Below, in pieces: positions 9,992-16,608 of a DNA stretch of 16,608 nucleotides. The first letter of the stretch is position 1. Each line of letters begins with the position of its first letter. Made by a program: the position numbers and the translations under genes. The notes beneath the pieces were generated by a model, which made no database searches, was not told the DNA's origin, and saw only the letters and a program-made list of their open reading frames with translations. This DNA is from a virus: positions 1 to 16,608 of IMG/VR virus record IMGVR_UViG_3300037473_000239, one strand, 5' to 3'.

Positions 9992-10118
9992 GCCCGGCTC
10001 CAAACTGCAAATGTGCATCCTGTGTTGACATGGAGGTTAGTCCGTATCAACCCCTTAGCCCATACCCCTTAGACCGTTTGCGTCATATCAAGATCACAGG
10101 CTGTCTACGTTCTGGGGT

Positions 10119-10328
10119 ATGGCCAAGGCCGAGGAGCTGTACCCGATGGGCGCGGAGGAGATCCGCCAGCGCCTCGGCGTCAGCGTGCAGCGGGCGTACA
10201 TCATCGTGGGCCGCAAAGACTTCCCCGACCCGTGGCGGCAACTCGCACGCGGCAAGGTGTGGCGCTCCACCGACGTCGAAGCCTGGATCAAGGAGCACCG
10301 GCCCGAACTGGCCGAAGGCAACTCCTAA
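10119..10328 (+). CDS. Helix-turn-helix DNA-binding protein, excisionase/MerR-like family; possible recombination directionality factor or regulator
   Basis: 69 aa. The text GAEEIRQRLGVSVQRAYIIVGRKDFPDPWRQLARGKVWRSTDVEAWI fits the excisionase-type wHTH pattern (HTH, then a basic wing, then W...V..W). The gene is immediately upstream of the integrase. Confidence 0.7.
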   Translation: MAKAEELYPMGAEEIRQRLGVSVQRAYIIVGRKDFPDPWRQLARGKVWRSTDVEAWIKEHRPELAEGNS

Positions 10329-10386
10329 GGCTGTCTTGGCGCGACCTTTGTCAGCTCGAAAGTGACGCTGTGACATACTTACCGGC

Positions 10387-11772
10387 ATGACTGCGACGTG
10401 CGCGATCTACTGCCGCATCTCCAAGGACCGCACCGGTGCTGGCCTGGGCGTCGAACGCCAGGAGAACGAATGCCGCGAGCTGGCCGCCCGGCTCGGCCTG
10501 ACCGTGACTGCGGTCTACACGGACAACGACCTCTCGGCCTACTCCGGCAAGACCCGGCCCGGCTACCGCCTCCTGCTGGCCGAGATCCAGGCCGGGCGGG
10601 TCAGTGCCGTGCTCGCCTGGCACACCGACCGCATCCACCGCTCCCCGGCCGAGCTTGAGGAGTACATCGCGGCCTGCGAACAGCGAGGGGTCCCGACGCA
10701 CACCGTCAAGGGCGGAACGCTCGACCTGACCAGCGCCAGCGGCCGGATGACCGCCCGCATCGTCGGTGCGGTCGCCCGCCAGGAGGTCGAGCACCAGATC
10801 GAACGGCAGCAGTCCAAGAAGCGGGAGACCGCCGCCGCAGGCAAATGGGGAGGCGGGCGACGCCCGTACGGCTACGAGGCCGACGGCGTCACCGTCCGGC
10901 CCGACGAGGCCCGCATTGTAGCCGAGGCCACCGACAAGATCCTGCTCGGAACAAGCCTCCGGTCGTACACGGCCAAGCTGAAGGAGGCCGGACAGCTCAC
11001 GTCGACCGGACGGCAGTGGGTGCCGACCGAGCTGAAGAAGGTGCTCATCCGGCCCCGCAACGCCGGTCTGCGCGAACACCGGGGCCAGATCATCGGCAAG
11101 GCCGAGTGGGAACCCATCGTCGCCGAGGAGAAGTGGAGGGCGGTCCGGGCGATGATGGCCGACCCGGCCCGGCGCACCACGACCGGCTCAGCGCGCAAGT
11201 GGCTGCTCTCCGGGATCGCGACGTGCGGCATCTGCGGGTCGCCCGTGCGCGCGGTCACCATGCACACCACCCGGGCAGGCGTGGCCTCGTACGCCTGCGT
11301 GGCGTCGAAATGCGTGGTGCGCAACGCGGCCGAGATGGACCGGTACGTCGAGCTGGTGACCGTCGAGCGGCTGAAGCGGCCCGACACCCTCGACCTGATG
11401 CGTCCGGCGTCACCTGCGATCGACCTGCCCGCGCTGATCGCCGAGGAGAACAACCTGCGGGAACGCCTCGACACCCTGGCCGACGACCTCGACCTTGACG
11501 AGCGGACCCTTGCCCGGCGGTCTCAGCGGCTGCGTGAGCGCCTGGAGGAGATCGGTGTGCACAAGGCGGAGGCCGGGCGCGGATCGCCGCTCTCCGGCGT
11601 TGTGGACGCACCCGACGTGCAGGCCGCATGGAACCGCCTCGACCTCGACCGCAAACGCGCCATCATCAACCTCCTGATGACGATCCGGGTCATGCCCGCC
11701 CGGAAAGGCCGCCCGGCAGGCTGGCAGCCCGGTGCGTCGTACTTCGACCCGGCCACCATCGACATCACGTAG
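10387..11772 (+). CDS. int: Large serine recombinase (phage integrase)
   Basis: The N-terminal resolvase domain carries the catalytic serine context AIYCRISKDR and LAWHTDRIHRS. A recombinase domain follows (GGGRRPYGYE). A zinc ribbon (CGICGSPV...YACVASKC) and a C-terminal coiled coil (NNLRERLDTLADDLD...RLRERLEEI) complete the protein. 461 aa. Confidence 0.92.
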   Translation: MTATCAIYCRISKDRTGAGLGVERQENECRELAARLGLTVTAVYTDNDLSAYSGKTRPGYRLLLAEIQAGRVSAVLAWHTDRIHRSPAELEEYIAACEQRGVPTHTVKGGTLDLTSASGRMTARIVGAVARQEVEHQIERQQSKKRETAAAGKWGGGRRPYGYEADGVTVRPDEARIVAEATDKILLGTSLRSYTAKLKEAGQLTSTGRQWVPTELKKVLIRPRNAGLREHRGQIIGKAEWEPIVAEEKWRAVRAMMADPARRTTTGSARKWLLSGIATCGICGSPVRAVTMHTTRAGVASYACVASKCVVRNAAEMDRYVELVTVERLKRPDTLDLMRPASPAIDLPALIAEENNLRERLDTLADDLDLDERTLARRSQRLRERLEEIGVHKAEAGRGSPLSGVVDAPDVQAAWNRLDLDRKRAIINLLMTIRVMPARKGRPAGWQPGASYFDPATIDIT

Positions 11773-11800
11773 CCATTAGTCAGTTCGGAATAGACAAAGG

Positions 11801-11826
11801 GGCCCACATAGATGTGGGCCTTTTTG
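11801..11826 (+). terminator. Rho-independent terminator downstream of int
   Basis: The arm GGCCCACAT (11801-11809) pairs perfectly with ATGTGGGCC (11812-11820) and is followed by TTTTT (11821-11825). The terminator lies 29 nt after the int stop. Confidence 0.7.
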
Positions 11827-11970: not shown

Positions 11971-12180
11971 GTGCGCACCAAAGTCGACCCTGACGTTGTC
12001 AAAGTCAGGGCCAAGCTCGGCACCGCTGTTCGAGAAAAGAACGCCGACCTTGAAGCTCAGTACCGCCAGGAATTGCACGACCTGAACATCATCGTTGCGG
12101 CCAAGCGGGTCGCAGCCCGACTCCCCGAACTGACTCCGGAGAAGCGCGAGCAGATCCGCGCGTTGCTCGGCGGTGCCTAA
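11971..12180 (+). CDS. Hypothetical small protein (69 aa), first gene of the early operon
   Basis: GTG start with GGAG 13 nt upstream. GC3 is moderately high. Its stop overlaps the next ATG as TAATG. No motif was recognised. Confidence 0.5.
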   Translation: MRTKVDPDVVKVRAKLGTAVREKNADLEAQYRQELHDLNIIVAAKRVAARLPELTPEKREQIRALLGGA

Positions 12181-12827
12181 TGGCGCGGGATGGGGGTTCC
12201 CGGCCTGCGGGTAACAGGCCGGGAACCGATCCCAGCGTAGACCGCTTCATCATGGTGCCGGTCGACGTCATGCACTACGTCGCCAAGGGACTCAGCCCAA
12301 CGGCCGCATGGCTCTACGTGGTGCTGCTCAGCCACCACAACCGCAAGCGCGAGGACAACGACGTGTGGCCGTCCCGCAAGTCGCTGGCCGAGGCTTTGGG
12401 GCTGAAGAAGGTCGACAACGTCGACAGGTACCTGCGCGAGCTGAGCGACTCGGGGCTTATCAAGTCTCGTCGCCGTGCGGGAGGCGTAAAAGGCGACGGC
12501 GTCGCGAATCAGACCAGCGTGTACACGCTCCTGCTAACCGTTAAGCCCGAAAGGCCCAAAGCGCAGGAGACGGCCCCCCCACCCCCTTCTGCGGGGGCAC
12601 CCCACCCCCATCAATGGGGTTACCCCCACCCCCATGAATCGGGTAACCCCACCCCCGCAGAAGGGACACGAACTAGAGGAAGTGAACTAGACGAATCTGA
12701 ACTAGATGAAATGAACAACAGTTGGCCCCCCCTCGCTTCGCTCGGCACCCCCCAAGGGGTGCACGACGACGAAACCGAAGTTGTCGAAGCCGAAATCGGC
12801 AATTGGGCTGACCCGTGGGCCAGCTAG
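12180..12827 (+). CDS. Winged-helix DNA-binding protein; putative replication initiator or replisome organiser
   Basis: The N-terminal text FIMVPVDVMHYV...LSPTAAWLYVVLLSHHN...WPSRKSLAEALGLKKVDNVDRYLRELSDSGLI is typical of phage and plasmid wHTH initiator N-domains. A Pro/His-rich linker and an acidic C-terminus follow. The linker coding DNA carries the iteron-like array. An alternative start is ATG 12252. Confidence 0.6.
   Translation: MARDGGSRPAGNRPGTDPSVDRFIMVPVDVMHYVAKGLSPTAAWLYVVLLSHHNRKREDNDVWPSRKSLAEALGLKKVDNVDRYLRELSDSGLIKSRRRAGGVKGDGVANQTSVYTLLLTVKPERPKAQETAPPPPSAGAPHPHQWGYPHPHESGNPTPAEGTRTRGSELDESELDEMNNSWPPLASLGTPQGVHDDETEVVEAEIGNWADPWAS
12574..12720. repeat. Putative origin of replication inside the initiator gene: four ~23-24 bp iteron-like units followed by an AT-rich block with three GAACTAGA repeats
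   Basis: CCCCACCCCC occurs at 12577, 12600, 12624 and 12647. Each copy is followed by N6-7 and a G-run, giving internal dyads (CCCCC-ttctgc-GGGGG, CCCCC-atcaat-GGGG, CCCCC-atgaatc-GGG, CCCCC-gcagaa-GGG). Units 2 and 3 are 21/24 identical, and units 1 and 4 form a 14 bp inverted repeat (CCCTTCTGCGGGGG / CCCCCGCAGAAGGG). GAACTAGA occurs at 12670, 12684 and 12699 in the most AT-rich coding stretch. Confidence 0.55.
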
Positions 12828-13325: not shown

Positions 13326-13559
13326 GTGAAGCACATCAACTTCAACCTCCCCTTCGGCGCGCGGACCGACATGCGCGTCAAGCAGGACAGCGCCCTCAGC
13401 CGCGCCCACGACATCGCCGCAGCAGCCGAAAAGCTCAGCCTCGAAGTCGCCGACCTCGGAGACCGCGTCACCACCATCACCGCATCACTCAAGGCGCACC
13501 ACGTCGCCATCGCCGACCTGGTGCAAATGCTCACCGACGAAGCCGACGACCAGGAATAA
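13326..13559 (+). CDS. Hypothetical 77 aa helical protein, paralog A, with C-terminal LTDEADDQE
   Basis: GTG start preceded by GAAGGAG-N8. The sequence is predicted to be helical or coiled-coil. Its 3' 30 nt are identical to the 3' end of the next gene. Confidence 0.55.
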   Translation: MKHINFNLPFGARTDMRVKQDSALSRAHDIAAAAEKLSLEVADLGDRVTTITASLKAHHVAIADLVQMLTDEADDQE

Positions 13560-13569
13560 GGGAGAGATC

Positions 13570-13803
13570 ATGCGCACCGAAACCCGCACCGCTCTGGAGT
13601 TGCACAAGGAGCACCTGACTGGCTGCGTCGAACGGCTCCGGACCGAACTGGAGAAGGACACGGCGCAGTGGACTGATCGCCTCGCGAGGCGGACCGGAGA
13701 TTTGGCCGATGCTGAGGCTCAGTTGGCTGCAATCACCGCCGACCTCGATGAGCCTTCGACCGTCGTCACCACGCTCACCGACGAAGCCGACGACCAGGAA
13801 TAG
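13570..13803 (+). CDS. Hypothetical 77 aa helical protein, paralog B, with C-terminal LTDEADDQE
   Basis: ATG preceded by GGGAGAG. It is the same length as paralog A and has the same last 9 residues. The body is coiled-coil-like (LRTELEKDTAQWTDRLARRTGDLADAEAQLAAI). Confidence 0.55.
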   Translation: MRTETRTALELHKEHLTGCVERLRTELEKDTAQWTDRLARRTGDLADAEAQLAAITADLDEPSTVVTTLTDEADDQE

Positions 13804-13808
13804 CCGCC

Positions 13809-14075
13809 ATGAGCAAGGCATGGGCCGGAGGCAGCGACACACGCTGGCGTCGCTTCCGGCTCACCATCCTGGAGAGAGACCGATGGCTCTGCACACTCAA
13901 GCTGGACGTCTGCACCACAACAGCCCAGCACGTACACCACGTCATCCCGCTGGCCAGGGGCGGAGCCAAGTACGACCCGGGCAACTGCACCAGCGCATGC
14001 GCAGCGTGCAACCTCAAGCTCGGCGACAGAGCACCGACACCACAACCCGAACCACGACCCACATCCTCATGGTGA
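13809..14075 (+). CDS. HNH endonuclease (packaging-associated type)
   Basis: 88 aa. The beta-beta-alpha-metal motif has paired cysteines: WLCTLKLDVC...HVHHVIPLARGG...DPGNCTSACAACN. Confidence 0.85.
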   Translation: MSKAWAGGSDTRWRRFRLTILERDRWLCTLKLDVCTTTAQHVHHVIPLARGGAKYDPGNCTSACAACNLKLGDRAPTPQPEPRPTSSW

Positions 14076-14161
14076 TCGACTGGGCACCCACGTTCCTGCC
14101 CGCACTCATCCTCTGCGCCCTCGGATTCCGATGGGGCACGGAATTCGTCGTGACCTTCTGA
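14069..14161 (+). CDS. Possible 30 aa hydrophobic micro-ORF (very tentative)
   Basis: The ATG overlaps the HNH stop (ATGGTGA). It encodes MVIDWAPTFLPALILCALGFRWGTEFVVTF, which would form one TM-like helix. There is no independent support. Confidence 0.2.
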   Translation: MVIDWAPTFLPALILCALGFRWGTEFVVTF

Positions 14162-14228
14162 AAAGTTGACGGGCTGTGGCCCACCGAACACCCGCTGATC
14201 TGTTTTTTTGTGTGCGAGTTTCCCCAGC

Positions 14229-15743
14229 TCAGGCGGCCGGACCGAGCTTCTTGATTCCGCGGGCCAGGTGCACTGCGGCGGCCATGCCGTACACGGTGTC
14301 AATCGGGGCCTTGCCGCGCCGCGCGAATCGCCATCCATCGCCCTGTGGTAGCTGCTGGGCCTGCTTTACCTGCTCGTTCATGAGCGGGTCGTGGGCGTGG
14401 CGGAACTGCCCGGCGGCAACCTGCTCTTCTAGGCCCATGCAGGCGCGTACGACGTCCTCGGCGCGGATGGGTTCGAGGAGGACGTTGCGGATTCGCTTGG
14501 TGGCGAATTCGTCGGCTACGGACTGAGCCGGCCCACCGGCGATCCAGCCGACCTTGCGTGGCTTGATGCGCTCGACCCATCCGGGCAGGTCACGGCGCAG
14601 CTCCTTCCGGCATTCGTAGCCGTTCCACGCTGCCACGACCTCACCCCAGACGAGGTCGCCGACCTTGACGGCGGCCAGGAGGCTTGCGTGGGAGTAGTCC
14701 TGCGCAACCTCGAAGGTCAGCGCCACCTCGCGGCGGTGATTGGCCAGGTCGATGAAGTCGGCCCGCTGGACGCCGCAGGCGTTCCAGTCCTCCAGCCGGA
14801 TCGCCGCCTTCAGCAGATCGACGCGCTGGCACATGATTTCGATCTTGAACCGGGCCAGGGTCTCGCCCCCGGCGGCTATCGCGACCCTGGCTTGCCCGAG
14901 GAGCGCATCCAGTTCGATCCCGTCCCCCAGGCTCGGGTTGGCCTGTGCGAGCGCGTCCACGTCGTCAGGGTCGGTCCCGGTGGGCGCGCTCCACGCGGCC
15001 AGGAAGACTCGCTGATCCCCCTCGCCGGTGAGGATGGTTGCATGCGCCGCGTCGTATTCCTCGTGCAGCACAACGGATTCGGCGTCGCCCTCGTTCGAGA
15101 TGCACACCAGAAGGCCGTCGGGTACCGCGTTCTGGGCGGGCACGATCGCATCCCACGTGTCGCGGTTCCGGTGCTCGCGCAACTCGTCCAGGAGCGCCCG
15201 GTCCACCGTGTCACCGCGCCCGGCCCGGCGGGTCGGGGCCGAGAAGCGGTAGTGGGAGCCGTAGTCGTTCCAGAAGTCCTCTTCGCCGATCTGTAGCGCG
15301 GTGTGTCGGGACGGCAGGGCGGCGGCCAGCACCTCGGTCCGCTCGGCCATCTCGACGACCTTCTTCCATGACCGCTTGGCGGCGGCCCGGTCGGTGGAGG
15401 TCGCCACGATTTCCGTGACCCGCTCGACGAACATCCAGTAGAGGATCAGCAGCCGGGTAAAGAGGGTCTTCCCGTTCTGCCGGGCGATCAGGATGATCGC
15501 CTTCCGGTAGCGGGGGGACCCGTCTGGGAACAGCTCGCCCAGCCGGATGGCCAGGCGGTGCTGCCATTCGCGCAGCGGCCAGCCGATCAGCGTGCAGAAG
15601 TCGGAGAAGTGGTAGCCCCAGGAAGACTCAGGGTTGGTCCAGAGGTCGTCACGTAGCGGTGGCGTGACCGTCGTCGGCTCGACGCTGCCCAGCACGGGCG
15701 CGCCGGGCAGCAAGCTGGTCCAGAGGGTTTCCGGCTGGGACAT
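14229..15743 (-). CDS. terL: Terminase large subunit (Terminase_1 / HK97-like family)
   Basis: 504 aa on the minus strand. It has Walker A (IARQNGKT), Walker B (RALLDELRE) and a C-terminal nuclease-like region. A strong RBS (GGAGGTGAAGG) precedes the ATG at 15743. Confidence 0.92.
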   Translation of the reverse strand: MSQPETLWTSLLPGAPVLGSVEPTTVTPPLRDDLWTNPESSWGYHFSDFCTLIGWPLREWQHRLAIRLGELFPDGSPRYRKAIILIARQNGKTLFTRLLILYWMFVERVTEIVATSTDRAAAKRSWKKVVEMAERTEVLAAALPSRHTALQIGEEDFWNDYGSHYRFSAPTRRAGRGDTVDRALLDELREHRNRDTWDAIVPAQNAVPDGLLVCISNEGDAESVVLHEEYDAAHATILTGEGDQRVFLAAWSAPTGTDPDDVDALAQANPSLGDGIELDALLGQARVAIAAGGETLARFKIEIMCQRVDLLKAAIRLEDWNACGVQRADFIDLANHRREVALTFEVAQDYSHASLLAAVKVGDLVWGEVVAAWNGYECRKELRRDLPGWVERIKPRKVGWIAGGPAQSVADEFATKRIRNVLLEPIRAEDVVRACMGLEEQVAAGQFRHAHDPLMNEQVKQAQQLPQGDGWRFARRGKAPIDTVYGMAAAVHLARGIKKLGPAA

Positions 15744-15972
15744 CCTTCACCTCCCCGCGATGCGCGGCGGCCCGCGACCGGGGACTCATCTGCAACGCCT
15801 CCAGGGCGGCGAGGAGCGCTCCGGCGGTCCGGTAGTCCGCCTCGTCCTCGTCGATGCGCAGCGCGAGCGTCAGGGCAAGCTCAGCGGTCGCGACGTCGCT
15901 CGGAGCCGGTGGCTTCGCGGTTAGGGCAGCACGCACCGCCTTCTCCAGTGACCCCGCTCGCCGATACGTCAT
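15649..15972 (-). CDS. terS: Terminase small subunit (putative)
   Basis: 107 aa immediately upstream of terL on the minus strand. The text ELALTLALRIDEDE...LLAALEALQMSPRSR...NPLDQLAARRARAG resembles actinophage small terminases. The ATG at 15972 is preferred over 15999 because the 9 extra codons have poor GC3 and lie in the palindrome. The gene overlaps terL by 95 nt. Confidence 0.65.
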   Translation of the reverse strand: MTYRRAGSLEKAVRAALTAKPPAPSDVATAELALTLALRIDEDEADYRTAGALLAALEALQMSPRSRAAAHRGEVKDVPAGNPLDQLAARRARAGQRRADDGHATAT

Positions 15973-15985
15973 GAATGCAGCGTAC

Positions 15986-16001
15986 CTATGTACGTACATA
16001 G
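15986..16001. promoter_or_regulatory. Perfect 16 bp palindrome CTATGTACGTACATAG in the divergent terS/portal spacer; candidate operator
   Basis: The sequence equals its own reverse complement. It is flanked by TANNNT hexamers: AGCGTA at 15979-15984 (TACGCT on the minus strand, 6 nt before the terS ATG) and TAGCAT at 16007-16012 (7 nt before the portal ATG). Confidence 0.5.
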
Positions 16002-16019
16002 TGAGGTAGCATCGGCACT

Positions 16020-16608
16020 ATGAGGTGGCCGTGGTCGCGTCGGGCTGAGCAGCCCGCGAACACGTCGCTGTCCATCGCCGACCCCGCGCTGGCCGCCCTG
16101 TTCTCCCCTGGCTGCGTCGTAGACCTGGCCGGGGTAGAGGTGGGGGAGCAGTCCGCTCTCGGCCTCAGCGCCCTTTTCCGGGGCGTCTCGCTGATCTCCG
16201 GCACCCTCGCCTCGCTGCCGCTGCGGTCGCTGAACCTCGACGATTCCGGTGCGCCGCAACAGGTTCCGTCGGTTTTCGACGACCCGGACGGGCCGGACGG
16301 CCAGACGCCGTACGAGTGGAAAGAGACCCTGTTCGCGCACCTGGTGATTCACGGCCGGGCCGGAGCGCTGAGGGTCCGCAACGAGGCTGGCGGCATGGCC
16401 CGTCTGGCGCTGGTGCACCCGCTGTGCTTCTACCCGGAGCAGCCGACGCAGGAGGAGTACCGGACGGGCAGGCTGCCTGCGGGCGGGCTGTGGTTCCGGG
16501 TCAGCTTCGCCGACGGCACGCAGCGGAAGCTCGACGCTACCGACTTCTGGTACGTGCCCGCCCTGGCGATGACGCCCGGGTTCGGGCAGGGCCTGATGCA
16601 GCTTGCTC
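16020..16608 (+). CDS. Phage portal protein, N-terminal part. It is 3'-partial in the window and continues at nt 1 (128 in non-redundant numbering).
   Basis: ATG at 16020, with the frame open to the window end. The text EQSALGLSALFRGVSLISGTLASLPLRS is typical of portal N-termini. The last 127 nt duplicate the window start. Confidence 0.85.
   Translation, partial: MRWPWSRRAEQPANTSLSIADPALAALFSPGCVVDLAGVEVGEQSALGLSALFRGVSLISGTLASLPLRSLNLDDSGAPQQVPSVFDDPDGPDGQTPYEWKETLFAHLVIHGRAGALRVRNEAGGMARLALVHPLCFYPEQPTQEEYRTGRLPAGGLWFRVSFADGTQRKLDATDFWYVPALAMTPGFGQGLMQLA
16482..16608. repeat. 127 bp terminal overlap identical to 1-127 (circularisation signature of the contig)
   Basis: A base-by-base comparison of both ends shows they are identical. 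The repeat lies inside the portal reading frame and preserves the frame. Confidence 0.95.

Follow-up and report, generated by a model that had tools for sequence, protein, structure and literature searches.

The 47-nt gap between the divergent terS-like and portal genes of the window (the whole stretch of 16,608 nucleotides analysed here) very probably carries two divergent leaderless promoters, judging from the conserved sequence patterns on both sides. The perfect 16-bp palindrome between their -10 hexamers may be a lineage-specific operator which blocks both promoters, and from the sequence comparisons we rate this second part slightly below an even chance. The architecture is tidy rather than revolutionary: an operator-like dyad in a very compact two-way leaderless late promoter. 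The phage belongs to a family of minimal temperate phages, none of them cultured, in which the terminase module is inverted.

Positions 1-127 of the window recur identically at 16482-16608, which shows it to be a circular assembly with a unit length of 16,481 bp. It is a complete small temperate HK97-type siphophage of Micromonosporaceae with 67.5% G+C. The virion genes encode portal, ClpP-like protease, major capsid, adaptor, tail terminator, major tail, chaperone and neck proteins, and further tail genes encode a short tape measure and an 895-aa tail protein. The non-virion genes encode an excisionase-type HTH protein, a large serine integrase, an HTH_36 replication initiator and two HNH endonucleases. 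The genes around the terS/portal gap are the following; since the contig is circular, the portal gene is divided between the two ends of the window:

13809 to 14075, plus strand: HNH endonuclease gene; it faces the cos region, an arrangement found in HK97-type HNH/terminase packaging modules
14229 to 15743, minus strand: terL, 504 aa, with a GGGGAGG Shine-Dalgarno (SD) sequence and a 95-nt overlap with the 3' end of terS
15649 to 15972, minus strand: terS-like gene, 107 aa, start ATG at 15972
16020 to 16608, plus strand: 5' part of the portal gene, with the rest at 128-774

Database matches bear out the gene labels: terL matched phrog_9 (2.6e-60) and the portal matched PF04860. The terS-like ORF matched Pfam Terminase_6 at E = 8e-5, which is below the gathering score, but 10 of its 25 homologues carry PF23931. 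No start codon precedes ATG 16020 in the portal ORF, and the N-terminus MRWPW that it opens is conserved; from ATG 15972 the terS product begins with M(T/A/G)(Y/F)RRAGS(L/M)EKAVR, conserved in the closest homologues.

Relatives were found as metagenomic viral contigs of 13-18 kb (a few of 37-40 kb) and as prophages in Actinoplanes and Rhizocola genomes. Among cultured phages no terL exceeded 32% identity and no similar DNA was matched. The usual order HNH-terS-terL-portal is kept, but with the terS-terL pair inverted onto the minus strand, and for this reason terS and portal diverge. The pair is inverted relative to HNH and portal in every relative found (~45 loci), and wherever both genes were found, the divergent layout is present with a gap of 28-62 bp. 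An invertible switch run by the serine recombinase was considered and rejected, because the orientation is fixed in all relatives and no inverted repeats were found flanking terS-terL. The inversion is thus a fixed family trait, not a switch.

Some other features of the genome were observed. Between a minus-strand 71-aa ORF and xis, 10019-10118 holds a perfect TTGACA and two copies of the direct repeat ACCCCTTAG, which may be attP or a regulatory region. Directly after the integrase gene, a G+C-rich hairpin followed by TTTTT (GGGGCCCACATAGATGTGGGCCTTTTT, 11790-11825) is likely a terminator, and beyond it, upstream of the 11971 gene, there is a GTCAA-N7-TTGAC dyad. The replication-initiator gene contains a 14-bp perfect palindrome (AGCGTGTACACGCT, 12516-12529), which may be an origin element. 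Two tandem paralogous ORFs of 77 aa with coiled coils (13326-13559 and 13570-13803) both end in LTDEADDQE and share a 30-nt perfect direct repeat (13529-13558 = 13773-13802); no homologues of them were found in the compared relatives.

The gap occupies 15973-16019, between the terS ATG at 15972 (minus strand) and the portal ATG at 16020. Read on the plus strand it is cat GAATGC AGCGTA CC TATGTACGTACATA GTGAGG TAGCAT CGGCACT ATG, including the start codons on both sides, and it has three elements:

15979 to 15984, minus strand: -10 hexamer TACGCT of P_terS, with GG in front (AGGTACGCT = 15987 to 15979)
15986 to 16001, no strand assigned: palindrome, arms CTATGTAC and GTACATAG, perfect over 8+8 bp, candidate operator
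16007 to 16012, plus strand: -10 hexamer TAGCAT of P_portal, with GG in front at 16005-16006

The palindrome CTATGTACGTACATAG is its own reverse complement. A preliminary description of this DNA had reported the perfect dyad at this place, with TACGCT and TAGCAT at 6 and 7 nt upstream of the terS and portal ATG, respectively, and on rechecking all these coordinates were correct: TACGCT runs from 15984 to 15979 and is followed by GCATTC and the ATG at 15972-15970, and TAGCAT is followed by CGGCACT and the ATG at 16020. It had also called the palindrome centred; the palindrome does lie inside the spacer, but the centring is approximate only, with the dyad centre at 15993.5 and the spacer centre at 15996. 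The palindrome is indeed the most A+T-rich feature of the spacer (10/16, 62%, against 6/13 and 8/18 on its two sides and 32.5% genome-wide). It takes up positions -14 to -29 of P_terS and -19 to -34 of P_portal, that is the spacer and -35 zone of both promoters as had been proposed, and it shares 2 nt with the GG of the terS extended -10 element.

The gene caller placed the terS start at ATG 15999, which is in frame and inside the palindrome (P0001, 116 aa), so that the palindrome would be coding. We consider this very improbable. The nine extra codons have G or C at the third position in 4/9, against about 0.9 in the genes of this genome, and no homologue has the extension, all of them beginning at the conserved M-x-Y-R-R-A-G-S; with this start the conserved -10 hexamer would moreover fall inside the gene. 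From the low GC3 and the lack of a counterpart elsewhere, the palindrome is taken as non-coding. On the plus strand an ATG at 15988 in the palindrome opens an 11-codon ORF (15988-16023) whose TGA overlaps the portal ATG (ATGA), and this is probably a coincidence, because no promoter was seen upstream of it.

The evidence for the two promoters comes from the relatives. In an automated count over 43 distinct portal upstream regions, TANNNT stood 6-7 nt before the start in 38 and 5-8 nt before it in 40. Before the terS start, TANNNT at 6-7 nt was counted in 14 of 20, several of the misses being start-codon mis-assignments. The background at all ATG and GTG codons of the same DNA is 0.84%. From 36 curated spacers the same consensus, GGTAyCCT, was obtained for either side; in it T-12, A-11 and T-7 are invariant or nearly so and G-13 and G-14 are enriched. 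There is no SD sequence before terS, and upstream of the portal only GAGG occurs, 13 nt before the start and itself upstream of the -10 hexamer, whereas the internal genes of the genome have GGAGG-type SD sequences at 5-10 nt. Scanning 13900-16300 with the sigma-70 -35/-10 consensus found nothing and no -35, and an intrinsic-terminator scan of the same region was also empty. Leaderless mRNAs with TANNNT about 7 nt before the start are a known actinobacterial feature. The conservation of TANNNT 6-7 nt before both starts, against a background of 0.8%, strongly supports two leaderless promoters, and the two earlier statements on them, -10-like hexamers at leaderless distance and no -35 in either promoter, hold in nearly every relative and in the consensus scan, respectively.

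Outside the gap, xis (TACGTT + 7 nt + ATG 10119; 10100-10121) and int (CATACT + 7 nt + ATG 10387; 10368-10389) also lack an SD sequence and look leaderless. These two genes share the pattern (T/C)ANNNT + 7 nt + ATG.

According to the model that we propose, the 47-bp spacer would be a compact two-way promoter, in which two -10-only promoters of the housekeeping-sigma type (GGTAnnnT, no -35) stand back to back. Transcription would start at or next to the A of each start codon and give leaderless mRNAs, with P_terS driving terS-terL leftward and P_portal driving the portal and the whole virion operon rightward. Such start points would be 48 bp apart, and hence the two polymerase binding sites would overlap. 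The palindrome fills the variable segment between the -10 hexamers, where in this lineage it has replaced a dyad of the relatives, and its likeliest role is that of an operator. A dimeric protein, from the phage or the host, that sits on the palindrome would occupy -14 to -34 of both promoters and silence packaging and virion genes at once, for instance in a lysogen.

Protein binding, and repression rather than activation, is what we infer from this geometry. A repressor is favoured over a classical late activator because the palindrome is inside both core promoters. One dimeric regulator at the palindrome, as the preliminary description proposed, is therefore plausible. In favour of an operator, the perfect dyad lies in both core promoters, and the same position in relatives holds dyads conserved across deep divergence, namely TGAGGnnnCCTCA and a CsoR box. 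The family-wide enrichment of dyads in this segment and the changes relative to the closest spacer, both described below, also count for it. Against it, the palindrome has a single copy in the genome and its sequence is not conserved in relatives, chance alone predicts a dyad of this size somewhere in such a genome, and a clustered, perhaps hairpin-templated mutation could produce one with no selection. No recognisable repressor gene was found: the small ORFs showed no repressor-like domain, the small ORFs unique to the window had no Pfam match, and no phage gene co-varied with spacer type, the early regions being mosaic. The two HTH proteins that had been put forward as candidates (10119-10328 and 12180-12827) look like an excisionase-type protein and a replication initiator, and nothing links either of them to the palindrome.

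The absence of a -35 in both promoters would also fit a palindrome that serves as the site of a MerR-like or late activator for both. MerR-type activators bind dyads in the promoter spacer, and 10119-10328 encodes a MerR-superfamily/excisionase-type HTH protein. But -10-only promoters are the actinobacterial norm and need no activator, the dyad centre at -21.5 and -26.5 relative to the two promoters is within both cores, where binding usually represses, and the same xis/int module is found in relatives with quite different spacers. It means that activation is improbable here.

Whether the palindrome is more than chance depends on where it is looked for. Perfect dyads with arms of at least 8 bp are expected 0.6 times per shuffled genome and were present in 45% of 500 shuffles, so the palindrome alone is not significant genome-wide. 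When restricted to the intergenic DNA (~650 nt) the expectation is about 0.02, and in the 22-nt segment between the hexamers 0 of 2000 shuffles matched its dyad. No second copy with up to 3 mismatches was found in this genome, and its half-sites were not enriched beyond chance. The exact palindrome had no match in IMG/VR and did not occur in any of about 45 relatives, even where terS is 72-84% identical, and a literature string search with its core returned nothing relevant. A hairpin or cruciform role was also considered and is unlikely, since shuffled sequences fold as well as the 47-nt strand does (z = -0.31); no known RNA family was matched in the window.

In the relatives the segment between the hexamers is strongly variable in sequence and bimodal in length, with 10-13 nt in 18 and 21-25 nt in 14 of the 36 curated spacers. 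The two length classes differ by about one helical turn. Across the family, dyads are enriched in this segment (the best arms sum to 119, compared with 92.9 +/- 4.2 for shuffles). The symmetric GG of both extended -10 elements accounts for a part of this, and in many short-class spacers there is no dyad between the hexamers at all. The closest spacer, that of L219, has the segment CCTCACTATGTGGCAACCTCGG, L218 has CCTCATTATGTGGTTACCTCGG and the window has CCTCACTATGTACGTACATAGG, all of 22 nt. A 12-nt insertion into a short-class spacer was thus dropped as the origin of the palindrome, because these closer relatives share its segment length. Compared with L219, the left 11 nt are identical and 6 of the 9 following positions differ. 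At the palindrome's positions 5 of 8 pairs are already complementary in L219, and every change in the window gives perfect pairing, including a double change from G.C to C.G.

Where the window has its palindrome, the closest relatives carry another conserved dyad, TGAGGnnnCCTCA, in one or two copies with a 16-nt period. It occurs in phages whose portals are only 40-63% identical, and had no further occurrence in a complete relative genome. Because it is conserved across such divergent relatives, it is probably functional. The palindrome took the place of the second copy, and the first one is left in the window as a degenerate copy:

16002 to 16014, plus strand: TGAGGTAGCATCG, a degenerate version of the family dyad TGAGGTAACCTCA; in relatives this dyad overlaps the portal -10

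These comparisons bear on the main rival explanation, in which the promoters are real but the palindrome has no protein partner and is the by-product of local, perhaps hairpin-templated mutation, with mainly the length of the segment being important (about 11-13 or about 21-25 nt between the hexamers). The hypervariability and bimodal length of the segment, the many short-class relatives without a dyad there, the confinement of the palindrome to this genome and the genome-wide chance expectation all agree with it, and the quasi-palindrome of L219 is of the kind that template switching perfects. On the other side, what was replaced is a probably functional dyad, and from the state of L219 more than one simple arm-copying event would be needed, because the central GGCC became ACGT. 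The phage was assembled complete on two contigs, which shows that the change was at least tolerated. On balance we regard mutation without a partner as rather unlikely, though a reading to be taken seriously.

Being the most A+T-rich 16 nt of the spacer, about twice as rich as the genome, the palindrome might instead act non-specifically, by helping promoter opening or upstream contacts or by nucleating an Lsr2-type silencer of foreign A+T-rich DNA. However, 16 nt is very short for nucleation of the Lsr2/CgpS type, the relatives manage with G+C-rich segments such as CCCTACGGGGG in the palindrome's place, and neither role needs perfect dyad symmetry, so that we give this explanation only a slim chance.

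The operator reading draws further on what other relatives carry at the same site. The type-2 operator consensus of CsoR in streptomycetes is ATATACCCCTNAGGGGTATAT, with the arrangement TAC-X9-GTA (PMC3902906). Several spacers of relatives carry such a box, located as follows:

CsoR-type boxes in relatives: L051 at 6441, L116 at 4548, L097 at 9449, L001 at 3733, L008 at 2725, L170 at 1235, and L061 in the spacer

The consensus ATACCC-N5-GGGTAT is matched 12/12 in L051, L116 and L097, which represent three lineages, and 10-11/12 in L001, L170, L061 and L008. These boxes sit exactly across both divergent -10 hexamers, as a single copy in each relative's locus examined. In L061 (contig IMGVR_UViG_2617270899_000001) both hexamers lie within a perfect palindrome of 25 bp, GATACCCCTACC-G-GGTAGGGGTATC. 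No phage-encoded CsoR was matched by tblastn with two CsoR sequences as queries. From the sequence of the boxes, this suggests repression of the relatives' late genes by the copper sensor of the host, and the presence of a CsoR box there means that the site accepts repressor operators. The window spacer contains no CsoR box: its palindrome has neither the C/G tracts nor the TAC-X9-GTA spacing. A wider possibility is that the spacer is a "socket" into which operators of host transcription factors are plugged lineage by lineage, and that the palindrome is the box of another host regulator, but we hold this to be unlikely.

The palindrome had been suggested alternatively as part of the cos or terminase recognition site, and its position directly upstream of terS is where cos sits in many HNH-associated cos phages. 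The genome ends of this family point elsewhere, to the following region:

14161 to 14214, no strand assigned: cos region, with AAAAGTT at 14161-14167, ACACCCGC at 14188-14195, the end at 14199/14200 and CTGTTTTTTTGTGTG at 14200-14214

Fourteen contigs from different samples (L003, L005, L008, L010, L015, L017, L018, L022, L024, L160, L162, L168, L170 and L177) stop at one homologous nucleotide, which corresponds to 14199/14200 of the window. This point faces the HNH gene and lies 29 nt beyond the stop codon of terL, at a distance of 1.77 kb from the palindrome. The motif at the end is conserved: CACACA(n)C(C)AN, the end point, N4-GCGGGTGT-N20-AACTTTT, then the HNH gene. Circular contigs and integrated prophages read through the end point, and the motif lies inside the chromosomal prophages of Actinoplanes, which excludes an attachment site. 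A single right-end contig was seen, L057, which begins 2 nt beyond the left-end cut; in one contig there is an imperfect terminal repeat of 21 nt. The cos abuts the 3' end of terL because the terS-terL pair is inverted. With the ends at 14199/14200 instead of 15986-16001, and with a conserved cos motif against a palindrome that is not conserved, the cos suggestion fails and a role of the palindrome in cos or terminase recognition is extremely improbable. Just before cos, a 29-codon hydrophobic ORF (VIDWAPTFLPALILCALGFRWGTEFVVTF, 14072-14161) overlaps the HNH stop (ATGGTGA).

If the operator reading is right, one 16-bp site would control all late functions of a 16.5-kb phage. It would be a very small and easily testable late-gene switch, acting through two overlapping leaderless promoters in a family without a cultured member. 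If boxes of host regulators are plugged into the spacer, host stress regulators would directly silence or release packaging and virion genes with no phage repressor cascade, and the CsoR boxes of the relatives suggest that copper sensing by the host may be linked to the late genes of prophages, which can be tested. For the annotation and engineering of high-G+C phages, the inverted terS-terL module, the two-way promoter of 28-62 bp and the mapped cos position are useful, and the family-level results correct the gene-caller error that put the terS start inside the palindrome.

Compared with known systems, the two promoters share with actinobacterial leaderless -10-only promoters the TANNNT 6-7 nt before the start and the lack of SD and -35, but here two of them stand back to back within 28-62 bp and head both late operons. 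The packaging genes are the same as in the HK97-type HNH-terS-terL-portal module, where cos lies between HNH and terS, and the HNH gene faces cos in both; the difference is that here terS-terL is inverted, terS diverges from the portal and cos is not where the palindrome lies. C-protein operators of restriction-modification systems are palindromic boxes in or near the promoters of leaderless transcripts, sometimes between divergent genes, and in the boxes and the predicted leaderless transcripts they resemble the window. They belong to unrelated genes, however, and the C protein is encoded beside its box and autoregulates; nothing comparable was seen here. A further precedent is the 33-34 region of mycobacteriophage BPs, with divergent P_R and P_rep and the 12-bp palindromic operator O_R, CGACATATGTCG (PMC4557955). 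It has in common with the window an actinobacteriophage origin, a short intergenic region, two divergent promoters and a short perfect palindrome in the promoter core. The BPs promoters have -35 elements while those of the window do not, and the BPs operator occurs at several genome sites with the repressor gene adjacent, whereas the window has one copy of another sequence. The BPs region also controls the repressor/early lytic switch and not packaging and virion genes. Its palindrome is bound by the repressor, and by analogy it gives a precedent for the candidate operator of the window.
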